Source: an uncultured Methanosarcinaceae archaeon
GTDB lineage: Archaea; Halobacteriota; Methanosarcinia; Methanosarcinales; Methanosarcinaceae
Direction: 5' to 3'
DNA: 64,000 bases
Assembly (NCBI GenBank): GCA_963727895.1
Contig: CAVSHT010000012.1
Coordinates: 1-64,000, forward strand
Program-made: the position numbers and the translations under genes
Shown: one piece after another, positions 16,001-61,815 of the stretch
How the letters are laid out: each line of letters begins with the position of its first letter
Numbering within the stretch: the first letter of the stretch is position 1
The notes under the pieces: generated by a model
What the model was told of the DNA's origin: nothing
The model's input: only the letters and a program-made list of their open reading frames with translations
The model's database searches: none

Positions 16001-16765
16001 AGGGAGTTACTCCATAAGTCATTAATATGTTATCATAAATAATTGAAAATTAAATAATATTGAAAGCTAGGGGCTATGAAAGTTTTTTTGGTTGAAATGA
16101 AGTTTAATAGATCAAAAAGCAGGAAATAAGATAATTCCCCACTTGAATTGAGTCTTTTCTATTAATCTTAAGTTTAATAATCTCTAAGTAAACCTCTAAG
16201 TAAGCAGAGTTTCTAAACAGTTAATCTCAGCTCAATATATAGATAAACTCTATTTAATCCAACTACTTCAAACTAATTAGGAAAGAGCTTGTCATTTATA
16301 TGCGTAAATTTGATAAATATGTGACCATTTTTAAATTTTTAATAGATATGCTTTACTGCATTTAGCTTTTTTGAATTGTCATTAATTATGGCGATTCAGC
16401 CGGAAAATAGTTAGAGAGATACTCCGAAAATCAATTTTGTTTCCAAATCTATAAAGTTTCAGAACTGTTTTTTATGATTAGAAAATCAATATGTCATCCA
16501 AAACGAGATTTGGATAACAAATTTTTATTTTACGACTCAACTTTATTATAACCTTCAAAGCTGTCAAGCATCTTGAAAATCATAGTGGTTTCTTCAGAGT
16601 GAGATTATTATTCCCAGAGTAAATATTTCCTTTAGAGAGTAAGAGCGATATTTGGGATAATAACATTTAGTGTTATGAAATTAAAGAAAAATATTAAATA
16701 TAAGTTTGTCGTACATACCTATGTCAAGACGAACAGACATAAAAAAGACCTCCTAAATATGGAGT

Positions 16766-16833
16766 CGAATTTGCAATTCCTGAATTTTTCATGTGTGAGT
16801 GCAGGCATATGAAGAATTCGGGAGTGCACTTCG
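16766..16833 (+). ncRNA. candidate structured sRNA hairpin
   Basis: 20 contiguous pairs (16777-16796/16805-16824) including 5 G-U pairs that form only on the + strand. Confidence 0.45.
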
Positions 16834-29563: not shown

Positions 29564-30940
29564 TTAGAATGCTAGTCCAAGTTCTTCGAGCTTCTTTCTT
29601 GCTCCGTCGTATACCTGCATGTACTCATCTGTTGGAGTTACAGTCTTTACGTCGTAGCATTCCTGGAACGTCTTTCCTGCTGGAGCGCTTGCATAATTCT
29701 TCTCATATAGAGCTACAAGCTTGTCAAGGATAACATTCACTTCTGCAATGTCTACTCCTGCCGTTGCCCTTGCAACTTCTCCCATCATTCTAGCTTCCAT
29801 ACCTGTGGTCTTATCAGTCACAACACCCTTTGCCGAAGCCACACCTGAAAGGATTTCTCTTCCAGACGCTGTATCAGTTATTGACTGAGCTGACGCCTCA
29901 AGCAGACACATCTCAGTACATGGTCCTGCACATGGATAATACTGGTTTCCTGAGAGAATATCTGTAAATTCAGAAATAGTTGCACATGCCCATCCTGCAA
30001 TCATCAAAGTTTCCCTTGTGTTTGTTGACCCCCAGCGTATGTGAACAGGTCCATCAAGATGCCAGTTTGCGTTACTCATAACAACTGAATTGATATGAGT
30101 TGCAATGTCAACAATTGTTGTCTCCTCAATGCCGCCCGCATATCCTCCGAAAATCGGCATCTGTTCATCCATAATTATGTCGCTGTTTGCAGTATAGTGA
30201 GCAATAACTGAAATTGCATCCAGGTCGATCTTAAGTTCACAGAGTTGTGAGACCTCATGGCTGTCCGTACAGGTCATTCCGCCAGCACAATCAGCGGAAA
30301 TGTTTCCCTGAGCGGACAGGGAGGTCTCTGGGCCCTAAACAGCCATGCCAGGCTTACCAGCCATGGCGCAAGCATTCTTAATAAGCCTTGTTTCGGTCTT
30401 TGCAGCAAGAACTTCATACGGGCTCTTTGGAATAGGAGCTTTCCCTCTCACTGTGGTCATAACACCATTAACGATAGTGTCTACTTCCTTTTCCAGAGCA
30501 TAGCTCAGGTGAACAGGCATAAACACCTCTTCTGAAATTGGAGATCCAGTAGGGCCACCCTGCACAATTGGCTTTCTCTTGTCAGCAACATTTCTTTTCT
30601 TAACGTTTACTGCTTCTCTGCCTGTACCGAGCACAAATTCCTTCTGGACATTGTTGATTGCATCCCAGATTTCATCTTCTGTGTACTTTACTATCCTGTG
30701 TGTATCAGTGCAGTAAATTCCGCAGTCAAGGAGCATCTCAAAGCCTGCATTGAAGAGTTTTTCCATCATGTCCTTATCTGTTGGGACAAACTTTCCCTTG
30801 AAATCAATTCCATACTTCTGCTTGAGCTCCATAGCCTTCATCGGAATCTTCATAAGATCCCAATCGTCCAGACTACACTTTTCTCCTACTTTTGCCCTGT
30901 CATAGAAATCATAGCAATCAAAGGACTTTCTAAATGTCAT
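29564..30940 (-). CDS. mtmB: monomethylamine:corrinoid methyltransferase, 458 aa, pyrrolysine at codon 202
   Basis: In-frame TAG at 30335-30337 (GKPGMAV-O-GPETSLSAQG) joins the two ORFs with no frame change. Confidence 0.97.
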
Positions 30941-35238: not shown

Positions 35239-35481
35239 GAACTACCTCTATATGTGGTAGGAGTCATTAGCTGTACAAGCGGTTCAAGGCAGACTCCATT
35301 GCCTATTCAATATCATTTATTACTGCATATATACTTAAAATTTGTTATATAAATACATTAAATAATAAAAGTAAAATATATATTGTCAATTAACTTATCA
35401 ATTTTATAAATTCTCTTAAACTTCATAGTGCATATATGAGAGCTGTTAATAGTGAGTTGTTAATATCTGATAGCTACTTAT

Positions 35482-58897: not shown

Positions 58898-60079
58898 TTA
58901 AGAGATTAGTGCCTTGAGTCCTTCAACTGCATTTACCAGTGTATCCACTTCTTCTTCTGTATTATATAGTGCAAAAGAAGCTCTTACTGTACTGTCCACT
59001 TTCAGGAAGTGAATAACTGGAATTGCGCAGTGATGTCCGCTTCTAACACAGATTTTTCTTGTTTGATCTAGAATCAGAGCCACATCATGAGAATGAAGTC
59101 CTTTTACATTAAAAGGCACTACTCCTGCTCTATCTTTGGGTCCGTAGACTTCTACGTGTTCGAGTTCAGAAAGCCTTTTTGCAGCTTCTCTGGACAATTT
59201 TATCTCATGCGATTCAATTTCCGAAACCCCGATTTTTTCTACATATTCAACTGCTTTCCCTAACCCTATGACTCCGGGAATATTTGGGGTGCCAGCTTCA
59301 AAACAGGCAGGAGAAGGTTCCAGTACGTAATTATATCCTTCAACGTCCGAAACTGTTCCTCCTCCAACTGAAACACTGTCAAGTACTTCTGGGTCTTTGA
59401 TATAAAGTACTCCAGTGCCCTGTGGCCCAAGAAGTCCTTTATGTCCGGCAGTTGCAAAGAAATCACAGTTCAGGTCTTTAACGCTGACCGGTATATGTCC
59501 TGCAGACTGGGCTCCATCCACCAGGACTTTTATACCGTTTCTATGAGCAAGTTTCGTTATATTTTTTACATCCTGAACAGAGCCGAAAACATTTGAAATC
59601 TGAGTTATGGCAACAAGTTTGGTTTTCTCAGTAAACGCATTCTCTATTGAAGAGATATCAATTCTACCTTCATGGTCTGGACTTACAACTGTGACGTTTA
59701 CTCCTTTTTTTTGAAGGCGCAGCCAGGGTAGGAGATTTGAATGATGTTCAAGCAGAGTTGTAACAATATGGTCTCCAGCTTCCCAGGGATAACTGTTTGC
59801 AATTAGATTTATTCCTTCCGTGGTATTTTTTGTAAAAACAGTCTTTGAAGGTTCTACATTCAGGAAACGTGCAACAGTCTCCCTTGCATCTTCATAGCGG
59901 TTTGTAGCCTCCCTTGCAAGACGATGCGCTCCTCTTCCGTGGTTGCCAGCATACTTATAAAAATACTCAACCATAGCTTCAACTGCTGGTATTGGAGTCT
60001 GAGTCGTTGCCGTGCTGTCAAGGTACACGACTTCTTTTAAAACAGGGAAATCTTCACGAACCGCATATACATCGTACAT
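58898..60079 (-). CDS. cysteine desulfurase (SufS-like, class V PLP enzyme)
   Basis: YLDSTAT, EHHSN, DGAQ, GHKGLLGP, RSGHHCA. Confidence 0.92.
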   Translation of the reverse strand: MYDVYAVREDFPVLKEVVYLDSTATTQTPIPAVEAMVEYFYKYAGNHGRGAHRLAREATNRYEDARETVARFLNVEPSKTVFTKNTTEGINLIANSYPWEAGDHIVTTLLEHHSNLLPWLRLQKKGVNVTVVSPDHEGRIDISSIENAFTEKTKLVAITQISNVFGSVQDVKNITKLAHRNGIKVLVDGAQSAGHIPVSVKDLNCDFFATAGHKGLLGPQGTGVLYIKDPEVLDSVSVGGGTVSDVEGYNYVLEPSPACFEAGTPNIPGVIGLGKAVEYVEKIGVSEIESHEIKLSREAAKRLSELEHVEVYGPKDRAGVVPFNVKGLHSHDVALILDQTRKICVRSGHHCAIPVIHFLKVDSTVRASFALYNTEEEVDTLVNAVEGLKALIS

Positions 60080-60121
60080 GCCTATTTTTTAGTAACGATA
60101 AATAAAAAAAGGTTTTGCAGG

Positions 60122-60277
60122 TTATTTACCCTGCACACCGCCTATCATAAAGCGGTAAAGGTCTAATTCGTCTGAGTCCAGGCTGTCAGTGAAACCTTTC
60201 ACAACGGAATGGTAACTGCTTTCCTGGTGTATTTGTTGTTCTTTTCTTTTTCTGTATTCATTCTTTAGTTCGCTCAT
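60122..60277 (-). CDS. small protein, 51 aa (absent from the ORF track)
   Basis: MSELKNEYRKRKEQQIHQESSYHSVVKGFTDSLDSDELDLYRFMIGGVQGK; purine-rich upstream; T-run after stop. Confidence 0.55.
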   Translation of the reverse strand: MSELKNEYRKRKEQQIHQESSYHSVVKGFTDSLDSDELDLYRFMIGGVQGK

Positions 60278-60590
60278 AATTTTCTTCCTGTCTCTTCAAT
60301 GTTTGCGCTTGCATGTGGGTCAACAGTCCTTCTGGATACTAGAGGCCCTGTAATCTGGGTTAAAGTTCCCAGTCTTTTTAGATGCAGCATGTTGATTACA
60401 GGTTTAAAATCACGGTCCTTCAAAGGCATCTCTATCAAGTTGTTCTCTAAATCCTGAGGACAAATTCCTGCATTACGGTTAGAGCTTTCTATTCTCTAGA
60501 TCAATACCTGAACGCAGACCCGAATTTTATTTCCCTTGGGCTAAAAAAACCCCGCAACAGCGCAACAAGCGTTGTTCTTACCCACAATAT
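60278..60590 (-). ncRNA. candidate large structured RNA / 5' leader
   Basis: GC-enriched island with several nested helices; TATA-like ATATATA about 25 nt upstream. Confidence 0.55.
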
Positions 60591-60889
60591 AATATTAATT
60601 GTCAATTGTAATATATATTGTTTCCGGATTTCTTTTATATTAACTTCAAATTTTTTCAATTGAGCCAAATTTTTGAGCTAATATTTTATACCATTCCCGA
60701 ACGATAATTGTTATAATACTTATTTTGAAAGTCTCATTCCTGTTGTTTTATTCATCAATTGGCTCTCCTCTTCCTACGTTTTATTTTTTCACTCAATGGG
60801 TATACGGAATCCTATTCCCATTATATGTTATAAATAACCTTTGCTTGTCTGTAGCATATTAAATAAAGATTCAAAATAACATAAAAATT

Positions 60890-61033
60890 CATTTGTATTC
60901 GGTTAAGGAATCTGTTAACGTTATAATGACTACTGCAATAATCTATGCATCTGGATTTACATTTATAGGTTTACAGAAATGGCAACAAAGATAACACATT
61001 TTCTATAAATCGTATCTTAACCGAATACAAATG
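60890..61033. mobile_element. MITE, 144 bp
   Basis: Perfect 18-bp TIRs CATTTGTATTCGGTTAAG; 10-bp target duplication CATAAAAATT. Confidence 0.9.
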
Positions 61034-61266
61034 CATAAAAATTAGATGTTTTGATTCTAAAAATGGGCTCTATAGAAAATCTCTGAAATAATAGACTCTA
61101 TTAAAGTGAAACAAATAATCTAATAGCTTTTTATTCTTTTTTTTCAGCGCATGAAATGATTTAGATAATTCTCTCCAAAGCCAAAAAATGCTATAAAAAT
61201 TCCCTTTAAGCTTGTTTTCTACAAACTCAGTTATTATTCAAAATCTTTATATCTCAACCAAAAAGT

Positions 61267-61815
61267 TTACTTTTTATTTTCAAGGTTATTCATGAGCCCT
61301 GCAAGATGAGCTGGAATTGCTCCGATTGCAGTACAGGTTTCAAGAGAAAGTCCTTTGCAGGTAATGTCAAGATGATACCTTCCTCTCTCGAAAAGCTCTT
61401 TTGGAAGCCCTTTATGCCCGAGCCCGACAAGAAATAGAAATGAGTGATTTCGAAGGGCTTCCTCTGCAATCTTTACAGGTATAACCTGTCTTTTTGGATC
61501 AGGTTTTGAGGTCGTGATAACGACTTTCCCAAACTGAGAAGGAAACCCTTTCTTTGGAAGATCGGATACTGATAGGTTATTTTTTTCATAAAGGATTTTG
61601 AGATAACTTCCAGATTCCCCTATTGTGGTTTTTTCCATCACATAAGCCACCAGTTCTTCTGCAGTCATCTTAAAAGGAAAATCATAAAGAGCAAGATGGA
61701 ATCCAAAAGCATGGCAGATAGGTGCAGCTCTTGCAATTGCTCGATAATGAGCATCAAGGATTTTGATCTTATCATAAGTGTTTACTATTCCAAGAGTGAG
61801 CATAAGGTGTTTCAT
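61267..61815 (-). CDS. DUF531-like protein (SPOUT-like)
   Basis: NTYD..HYRAIARA; VGLGHKGLP...SLETCTAIG. Confidence 0.7.
   Translation of the reverse strand: MKHLMLTLGIVNTYDKIKILDAHYRAIARAAPICHAFGFHLALYDFPFKMTAEELVAYVMEKTTIGESGSYLKILYEKNNLSVSDLPKKGFPSQFGKVVITTSKPDPKRQVIPVKIAEEALRNHSFLFLVGLGHKGLPKELFERGRYHLDITCKGLSLETCTAIGAIPAHLAGLMNNLENKK

Follow-up and report, generated by a model that had tools for sequence, protein, structure and literature searches.

A long leader with conserved ends precedes a small-protein gene beside a SufS-like cysteine desulfurase gene in Methanosarcina

Methanogens rely heavily on Fe-S proteins. To our knowledge, the control of sulfur mobilisation in Methanosarcina is poorly known and few cis-regulatory RNAs have been described in archaea. 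The locus considered here raises the question of what is done by several hundred nucleotides that precede a small open reading frame (ORF) and, beyond it, a cysteine desulfurase gene. It lies in a window of 64,000 nucleotides from an uncultured Methanosarcinaceae archaeon (contig CAVSHT010000012.1), which is assigned to Methanosarcina by its Rfam matches and by the names on homologous proteins. A preliminary description, made from the letters of the window, had read the region at 60122-60620, which takes in the ORF, the ~309 nt ahead of it and a TATA box, as a ~310-nt multi-helix RNA and proposed an undescribed large non-coding RNA or riboswitch-like leader; its sequence, coordinates and listed complementary stretches all proved correct. 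On the minus strand the gene order is the DUF531 gene, a 989-nt spacer, the 51-codon ORF and the SufS-like gene, whose start follows the stop codon of the ORF after 42 nt (Table 1). The desulfurase matches Pfam Aminotran_5 (E 1.9e-132) and scores 438 bits against the TIGR01979 sufS model, under its 475-bit cut-off. Elsewhere in the window Rfam recognises a pyrrolysine insertion element, archaeal sRNA41 and, at 35251-35312, a fluoride riboswitch.

Table 1. Features of the locus (window positions; all on the minus strand).
Feature	Positions	Strand	Basis or details
DUF531 gene	61267-61815	-	
Archaeal promoter	60609..60628	-	BRE-like UCCGGAAA 60621-60628; TATA box AAUAUAUAUUA 60609-60619
Non-coding 5' leader, ~309 nt	60278..60586	-	From the inferred start UGUGGG to the base ahead of AUG
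Conserved 5' module	60538..60586	-	Alignment; 57/58 other genus genomes match
Parts of the 5' module		-	Box 1 UGUGGGU 60580-60586; AACAA/UUGUU hairpin; UUGCGCU 60559-60565
Further parts of the 5' module		-	G-box GCGGGGU 60549-60555; U7 run 60543-60549; AGCCC
Conserved 3' module	60284..60320	-	C-box ACCCACA 60314-60320; AGCGCAA 60303-60309
Ribosome-binding module UUGAAGAGACAGGAAG	60284-60299	-	Within the 3' module
51-aa small-protein gene, orthologue of M. mazei sORF_156 / MM_RS18365	60122..60277	-	tblastn, profile, M. mazei Ribo-seq and MS
Terminator-like hairpin over the stop codon	60104..60135	-	GCAGG 60130-60134, loop, CCUGC 60117-60121
U7 run behind the stop-codon hairpin	60104-60110	-	Preceded by AAAACC
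SufS-like cysteine desulfurase gene (class V, group II type), 393 aa	58898..60079	-	Pfam, TIGR01979

The 51-aa ORF is a genuine, conserved gene. As first described, it encodes a small charged protein ahead of the desulfurase gene; the epithet 'unannotated' is true of this record, but homologues carry a hypothetical-protein annotation in several Methanosarcina genomes. A tblastn search with the peptide, which the preliminary description had called for, found a match in each of 30 related loci, and the matches give the consensus MSEL...YH.VVKG.TD.LD.DELDLYRFMIGG.QGK; the desulfurase gene lies downstream in every one of these loci and the DUF531 gene upstream in 28. A profile built from 31 homologues, against which the window copy scores E 2.0e-26, has matches in 92 of the family's 93 other genomes and in none of 107 genomes from five sister families of the order. 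When 1.84 billion representative proteins were searched, 30 matched the small-protein family, nearly all of them 46-83 aa long. On these searches, the protein is restricted to one family, comprising Methanosarcina and its relatives. Its members follow the pattern of 46-60 aa with a C-terminal ...[ED]L[YCI].F[MLI].GG...K placed right at the stop codon, to which the C-terminus of the window protein, DELDLYRFMIGGVQGK, conforms. Residues L40, Y41, R42, G46, G47, Q49 and K51 are invariant in the 31-sequence alignment. The conserved C-terminal codons differ at synonymous positions between species, as expected from protein-coding constraint. Profile searches returned no relative of the small protein in Pfam, NCBIfam or PDB (PDB: 0 hits), and AlphaFold predicts a single confident helix at residues 35-44, with the rest at low confidence (mean pLDDT 65.8).

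The window gene occupies the orthologous position, ahead of a ~393-aa SufS-like gene and accompanied by the UUGAAGAGACAGGAGG module and the stop-codon hairpin. Many other genera have two or three paralogues of the small protein. Among 12 second copies fetched from other genera, 11 do not lie beside a desulfurase-like ORF, their neighbours being classed by length and N-terminal sequence alone. The idea that the small protein is an obligate partner of the desulfurase is weakened by these second copies lying elsewhere.

The M. mazei orthologue, sORF_156 or MM_RS18365 (NC_003901.1:1809596-1809754, minus strand), is listed in the available tables of Tufail et al. (2024, Nat Commun, PMC11456600) as predicted from Ribo-seq, as curated 'yes' for translated, and as detected by top-down as well as bottom-up MS in a des-Met full-length form. 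At 52 aa it is close in length to the 51-aa window protein, shares with it the MSEL start and the C-terminal ...LDLYR[FY]MIGG.QGK, and is likewise flanked by a DUF531 gene on one side and, on the other, by the gene of a 393-aa cysteine desulfurase. The peptide of one of our loci (L086) is identical to it. The name sORF_156 has 0 occurrences in the main text of PMC11456600, where only the protein is catalogued, in the supplements, and the locus has no mention in the text or supplement of PMC12704099. Paper searches and the supplements of PMC11456600 yielded no description of the leader. The M. mazei locus differs in one respect of annotation: the tables of PMC11456600 carry its leader as a hypothetical CDS and not as an RNA element.

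Does the leader start where the TATA-like box of the preliminary description would place it, and is it coding? That box exists as described, with a BRE-like CCGGAA ahead of it. We took as a promoter a purine-rich BRE directly 5' of an 8-nt A/T box about 26 nt ahead of the start; the sequence at 60609-60628 has this form, and CCGGAA with the AUAUAUAU box recurs at a fixed distance ahead of UGUGGG in 63 of the 66 loci tried for leader cutting, the three misses being L026 (a GTG start, which the pattern disallowed), L067 and L080. Transcription would begin near 60586, given the spacing of ~26 nt after the TATA centre. The leader is joined, as had been proposed, to a gene for a small charged protein behind an archaeal-type promoter.

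In M. mazei this leader carries a RefSeq CDS, MM_RS07840, of 83 aa, and it is conceivable that the leader holds a second translated ORF. An open frame of 73 codons exists in the window leader, of 94 in L086 and of 104 in L008, and the translation efficiency of MM_RS07840 is given as 0.9 in the tables of PMC11456600, over that study's threshold of 0.5, so that ribosomes may contact or translate this species-specific frame in M. mazei. However, 17 of 20 leaders examined have 1-8 stops in that same frame, most species have 2-13 stops per frame, and the indels are of lengths that are not multiples of three; moreover, footprints of ribosomes initiating on the overlapping small ORF would presumably be counted for MM_RS07840. 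Because no leader frame is open across species, MM_RS07840 is unlikely to be a gene. We rejected a coding leader on this ground and regard a second translated ORF as scarcely credible. The alignments show the leader to be non-coding and under selection at both ends; in M. mazei it is also abundantly transcribed.

How far that selection extends depends on where in the leader one looks. A match to the leader was found in 57 of 58 other genomes of the genus, and the sole miss (G155) is a genome that is 81% complete. The full alignment of ~360 nt is found in only 26 of the 58; in the others, what is kept is confined to the promoter, ~50 nt at the 5' end and ~40 nt at the 3' end. The leaders are 116 to 632 nt long, the minimal forms of 116-141 nt being of the g2 and g13 type. 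The 5' module (first ~50 nt) and the 3' module (last ~45 nt) are strongly conserved, and the middle is kept in close relatives only, having elsewhere shrunk, been replaced or acquired tandem repeats. In a comparison of 11 species with the window, the 5' module shows an identity of 0.77-0.98 and the 3' module one of 0.80-0.88; for the middle, where gaps count as differences, the value is 0.59-0.74. The corresponding value for four-fold degenerate sites of the neighbouring sufS-like gene is 0.52-0.63 (11 species pairs). That all three parts exceed the four-fold sites bears out the view that the leader is under purifying selection, strong at the ends and weak in the middle.

These numbers also bear on the possibility that the leader is mostly a neutral spacer, in which only the promoter-proximal bases and the ribosome-binding site function and in which the closeness of the species mimics conservation. 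Loss, replacement or expansion of the middle in many lineages would be expected of such a spacer, and the fold and covariation statistics reported below are close to background. But even the middle exceeds the four-fold sites, the 5' module persists for ~50 nt past the inferred start in nearly every genome of the genus, and the G-box is retained in six genera. We give this possibility little credence.

The G-box (G[UA]GGGG) is present in the leaders of genera g13 (6 of 6 loci), g2 (2 of 2), g8 (5 of 5), g15 (2 of 2) and, at one locus in three, g14; it is absent from the loci of g4 (0 of 7), g3 (0 of 3) and g6 (0 of 2). The U run that follows it varies from U3 to U7 and is not conserved. In genera g4, g3, g14, g8 and g15 the orthologous gene is preceded by short, unrelated leaders. 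The 3' module is duplicated in two species, and one species carries 8-9 copies of a 34-nt unit in its leader. The leader modules are single copy in the window's own genome; a regulon built on further copies of the modules was considered and rejected, none occurring there besides the present locus.

Is the leader, then, a folded RNA of the kind first proposed? The minimum free energy (MFE) fold of the window does give the helices that had been listed, namely UGUGGGU/ACCCACA, AACAACGC/GCGCUGUU, GGGUU/AGCCC, the long arm and the branched domain. The fold is no more stable than expected from shuffled sequence, an outcome that the preliminary description had itself named as refuting it: window z-scores are -0.89 and -0.58, the 313-nt stretch has an MFE of -77.8 kcal/mol, where 100 dinucleotide shuffles give -73.4 +/- 4.95, and 22 of these shuffles fold as well. 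Homologous leaders, 18 in number, average a z of -1.28, and five of them fall below -2. Imposed on 30 related leaders, the window fold leaves 80.1% of cells paired, compared with 79.4% in shuffles. Helices 1, 2, 3, 4 and 12 hold across these leaders (84-99% paired) and helices 8, 10, 11 and 13 fail (57-68%). The AACAACGC/GCGCUGUU helix is broken in a clade of six species (L074, L077, L078, L081, L083 and L088), which has lost the CGC strand and kept the GCG strand; a shorter hairpin of the AACAA/UUGUU type survives there.

Covariation was assessed from changes on both sides of a pair. In the 30 leaders, 21 pairs show such changes against 13.7 +/- 2.4 in shuffles, a number reached by 3 of 500 shuffles; slid controls give 10-20 double-change pairs, so that 21 is not clearly above background. 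In 13 close relatives there are 12 double-change pairs, where shuffles yield 6.7 +/- 1.7 and slid controls 3-5, and for the same 13 the covariation term of RNAalifold is +0.18, that is, no net covariation. Rfam returned nothing in 59900-61400, at the gathering threshold or at E<=10, except PyrG_leader (E 3), which lies on the opposite strand and upstream; the stated absence of RNase P and SRP signatures is in keeping with this. Rfam searches of eight homologous loci likewise gave nothing relevant, and no riboswitch class was matched in the window region or in these eight loci.

A metabolite-sensing riboswitch or large structured RNA would have to take the end modules as its sensor and the middle as a tolerated insertion. 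Two conserved modules flanking a variable insert do recall some aptamers with variable stems. Alternative pairings are available, since there are two G-boxes for each C-box and the AACAA/UUGUU hairpin competes with a long-range CUUG/CAGG pairing; the excess of double changes in the window's own clade, and a sulfur-mobilising enzyme next door as a plausible regulated target, speak for the same reading. Against it stand the lack of an Rfam match, fold energies near those of shuffles, double changes that fall inside the slid-control range once 30 sequences are used, conserved helices without covariation, a Shine-Dalgarno region predicted to be unsequestered, and the short, unrelated leaders of other genera. 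Neither stability above shuffles nor an architecture conserved over the full length was found, as a large structured RNA would show, and neither a hidden ribosome-binding site nor a one-state terminator, as an expression platform would. A large folded RNA or riboswitch formed by the leader is not shown by these data, and we judge it very unlikely. The ~310-nt multi-helix RNA fails as a conserved unit, in view of the 26 full-length alignments, the variable length, the shuffle-like energies and the weak covariation. What stands of the proposed undescribed RNA or riboswitch-like leader is a leader that belongs to no described RNA family; the riboswitch design found no specific support.

The two ends of the leader may nevertheless pair. 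RNAalifold, applied to 30 window-like and 12 M. mazei-like leaders, joins UUGCGCU to AGCGCAA and the G-box to the C-box in both sets; for the M. mazei-like group it adds a pairing of CCUGU with ACAGG. The 5'/3' long-range helices pair in 95.8% of cells. They are near-invariant, with a double change in 1 of 16 pairs, and therefore carry no covariation. For the 5' strands of g13, the native H2 duplex scores -10.3/-13.6 against -4.8 to -9.0 for cross-genus swaps, and for those of g2 -7.7/-8.0 against -2.7 to -5.4; the comparison covers four lineages only, in which native pairs are mostly better. The whole-module duplex scores -23.5 kcal/mol for native and -22.3 kcal/mol for swapped combinations (287 of 10000 permutations), and its mean z against shuffles is -1.5, with 7 of 22 below -2. 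The better partner of the C-box differs by clade, being G-box 2 in 34 of 62 leaders and box 1 in 28, and the 3' modules of g2 keep the GCGC box without a good 5' partner. We infer a long-range 5'/3' pairing that would close off the middle. The leader is compatible with such a closing helix and with alternative pairings; statistical proof of structure it does not give.

The conservation is broader at the ribosome-binding site and at the stop codon. The 16-nt module UUGAAGAGACAGGAGG is also found 5' of the desulfurase-linked small ORF in other genera; the window copy has one mismatch, and reads GGAAG where 61 of 62 other leaders have GGAGG. The stop-codon hairpin was a match in the terminator scan; among 44 distinct sequences from 10 genera, 40-44 retain its five pairs, and one double change, from G-C to A-U, occurs. 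Other genera with short leaders (g4, g3, g14, g8 and g15) keep UUGAAGAGACAGGAGG, the stop-codon hairpin and the U-run. The 11 fetched paralogues that lie away from a desulfurase gene have neither the UUGAAGAGACAGGAGG module nor the stop-codon hairpin, so both elements belong to the locus and not to the protein family. The ACAGGAGGA stretch is predicted to be unpaired with a probability of 0.26-0.81, the window standing at 0.81, and Shine-Dalgarno accessibility in 14 leaders, compared with shuffled leaders, has a mean z of +0.62 and is not lower. Default sequestration of the Shine-Dalgarno sequence was rejected, as the site is predicted to be mostly unpaired, and an accessible region of this kind shows no default-off expression platform.

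One bolder proposal takes the leader modules, UUGAAGAGACAGGAGG and the stop-codon hairpin together as a dedicated unit of post-transcriptional control, a new archaeal sensor RNA responsive to sulfur or Fe-S status, or else as a device of nascent-peptide control. As a sensor, operated by a ligand or a factor, it would set the level of a small protein that works with the group-II cysteine desulfurase. As nascent-peptide control, the C-terminal ~22 residues, which are highly conserved, would be regulatory and the ribosome would melt the stop-codon hairpin, thereby coupling translation to read-through into the desulfurase gene. We regard this proposal as decidedly unlikely.

Expression data come from M. 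mazei, another species of the genus, and from assembled RNA contigs. In the available tables of PMC11456600, the leader 'CDS' MM_RS07840 (249 nt) has an RNA baseMean of 550 and a Ribo-seq baseMean of 933, the desulfurase gene MM_1517 (1182 nt) has 137 and 566, and the DUF531 gene MM_1518 (549 nt) has 3.7 and 45. By our own arithmetic on these values, leader RNA per base exceeds the desulfurase ~19-fold and the DUF531 gene ~330-fold. This excess fits a strong promoter of its own, combined with a drop past the small ORF through efficient termination or else quicker decay. Under nitrogen limitation the same tables give an RNA log2 fold change of -0.09, and hence no condition-dependent support for a role in cis. 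Among the RNA contigs, which are assembled and have no readable ends, those of runs X1 and X7 cross the whole locus, and one of run X18 extends from leader nt 62 to sufS, the preceding 94-nt bin being uncovered. Run X5 has short contigs in leader nt ~45-232 with a summed word depth of about 4x10^4, and a contig with the rest of the leader, the small ORF and sufS at a depth of 829; contig depth cannot rank the parts of a gene.

The abundance of the leader raises the further possibility that the leader, whole or as a piece left by processing or early termination, accumulates as a stable RNA with its own function, making a dual-function small-protein RNA, for example a platform of repeated purine-rich CCNGAAGG hairpins; such a platform would bind protein or ribosomes. 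The per-base excess in M. mazei is consistent with this, as is the translation efficiency of 0.9, which indicates nuclease protection. The deep short X5 contigs inside the leader are a weak hint from one study. The words AGGAA, CAGGA and GAAUU are each present two or more times in 12-15 of 21 leaders, an enrichment inflated by common ancestry, and the tandem 34-nt units of one species point the same way; the window's own leader, however, has no direct repeats. The available sRNA table of PMC11456600 lists no sRNA at the leader position in M. mazei, the contigs give no ends, and with the modules in single copy no target family or relatives are seen. A stable RNA of this sort is an unlikely reading, though a conceivable one.

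The reading that we favour, with moderate confidence, is that of a leader which influences, in cis, how stable a terminator-bounded small-protein mRNA is and how it is translated. We infer this cis-regulatory role, as long leaders commonly act so in the family. The locus would form one transcription unit made up of the BRE/TATA promoter, the ~309-nt leader, the 51-codon gene and the hairpin-plus-U-run terminator. The constants of a family-wide control region would be the UUGAAGAGACAGGAGG ribosome-binding module and the hairpin over the stop codon, and the leader may be a lineage-specific elaboration of that region, seen in three genera. In it, the 5' module, with its two G-rich boxes and UUGCGCU, would pair with the C-rich box and AGCGCAA of the 3' module, enclosing a fast-evolving middle prone to indels and duplications, and the ribosome-binding site would stay mostly open. 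The desulfurase gene is probably transcribed from its own promoter in the U-rich spacer, with some read-through.

The locus is a well-defined new example of a conserved long leader with a small-protein gene; it is no demonstrated new RNA class. It joins a validated small protein, apparently of one family and fixed beside a SufS-like gene, to three unusually conserved cis elements, namely the leader modules, the 16-nt ribosome-binding module and the stop-codon hairpin. Expression is high in a genetically tractable relative, M. mazei, and the cis elements make the locus a reasonable target for work on the regulation of sulfur mobilisation in methanogens. An annotation also stands to be corrected, as the 83-aa leader CDS of M. 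mazei is unconserved as a reading frame. If the leader were only a stabilising UTR, it would be an ordinary case for the family.

Several known systems invite comparison. ISD11/LYRM4 is the small LYR-motif partner of the eukaryotic cysteine desulfurase NFS1, and LYR-motif (Complex1_LYR) proteins have three helices and about 80-90 aa. The window protein is likewise small, has in a helix the tripeptide L-Y-R with F or M after it, and is encoded beside a cysteine desulfurase gene. It differs in that its motif is C-terminal and that its 51 aa are predicted to hold a single confident helix; the tripeptide, moreover, varies in other genera and in paralogues (LYH, LYQ, LYK, LCR, LIR). None of 31 members of the small-protein family matches the Pfam LYR families at E<=10, and kinship with LYR proteins or ISD11 was rejected for want of a profile match or PDB hit and in view of the length and the one confident helix.

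The leader resembles riboswitches, of which the window's fluoride riboswitch (35251-35312) is an example, as a 5' cis element that offers alternative pairings; it differs in having no family match, no aptamer clearly backed by covariation, no predicted sequestration and a core of variable length. The spRNAs and dual-function RNAs of M. mazei are likewise short, terminator-bounded, abundant transcripts with a small ORF and a long untranslated part, but the locus is absent from the spRNA/sRNA table available from PMC11456600. The closest setting is that of the generic long 5' UTRs of Methanosarcinaceae. According to the parts consulted of Li et al. (2015, PMC5378194), 24% of 5' UTRs in Methanolobus psychrophilus exceed 150 nt, with 300-500 nt common, and most M. 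mazei mRNAs have been reported to carry long 5' UTRs (citing Jager et al. 2009). Those leaders, too, place several hundred nucleotides behind a BRE/TATA promoter; in the present case the ends of the leader are conserved in three genera and the ribosome-binding module is conserved throughout the family.

The ribosome-binding module of the leader reads GGAAG in the window, at a position where 61 of the 62 other leaders have GGAGG and the remaining one, locus L025, has GGAUG. The small protein also differs, with Phe at a codon where 17 of the 31 aligned homologues have Cys. Variants of the reading frame are found in other genera of the family. The ORF is split by an in-frame TAA in L029 (genus g14) and uninterrupted in L037 and L038, and in genus g4 (L032-L034) an AUG forms the first bases of the ribosome-binding module. 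At L033 the module starting with this AUG is joined in frame to the small-protein ORF, while at L032 and L034 the same AUG opens a 5-codon upstream ORF that ends in UAA.

The leader itself has been expanded or duplicated in several relatives. At L068, in genome G146, it reaches 632 nt. A 34-nt unit originating in the central domain forms a tandem array of 8-9 copies there, and the ribosome-binding module is duplicated too. L071 and L072 each carry two copies of the entire 3' module, with its C-box, its AGCGCAA box and its ribosome-binding module. The copies lie 75-78 nt apart, and no small-protein ORF follows the upstream one. In M. mazei, RefSeq places an 83-aa CDS with a TTG start, MM_RS07840, wholly within the leader. 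Since this frame is not conserved among related species, the CDS is probably a mis-annotation.

Downstream of the small-protein gene, the U-rich spacer contains no clear Shine-Dalgarno sequence. The UUUAUUUAU motif lies about 20-27 nt upstream of the desulfurase AUG and may have a second role as a TATA box, in which case the desulfurase mRNA would be leaderless or near-leaderless.

The spacer upstream of the promoter measures 989 nt in the window versus about 455 nt in most close relatives, owing to the presence of a ~150-nt element. Fifteen more copies of at least 129 nt (81-97% identity) are spread across 8 contigs of the same genome. Because of these repeated copies and the inverted ~21-nt matches carried at both ends, the element looks MITE-like in sequence. 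Other RNA elements in the window are listed in the table.

Coordinates of the features discussed (window positions unless a locus or accession is given)
Feature	Location	Remark
Archaeal sRNA41	16723-16833	Rfam match, 51.4 bits
PYLIS_1	30238-30337	Rfam match, 103.9 bits
Fluoride riboswitch	35251-35312	Rfam match, 57 bits
U-rich spacer with UUUAUUUAU	60080-60121	after stop-codon hairpin
Phe codon	60191-60193	
Ribosome-binding module	60284-60299	
Repeat element	60882-61038	within spacer
Expanded leader	L068:181-812	
Doubled 3' module	L071:100-493; L072:135-516	
MM_RS07840	NC_003901.1:1809751-1809999	

Paralogues of the small protein (L090-L101) were found in other genera. Some, for example in g4 and g16, have a gene for ~360 aa on one side and one for 115 aa on the other, close to what looks like the gene for an acetyl-CoA decarbonylase/synthase subunit. 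The paralogues retain ...RF[ML][IV]GG...K at the extreme C-terminus, and their neighbours and flanking RNA signals differ from those of the desulfurase-linked locus.
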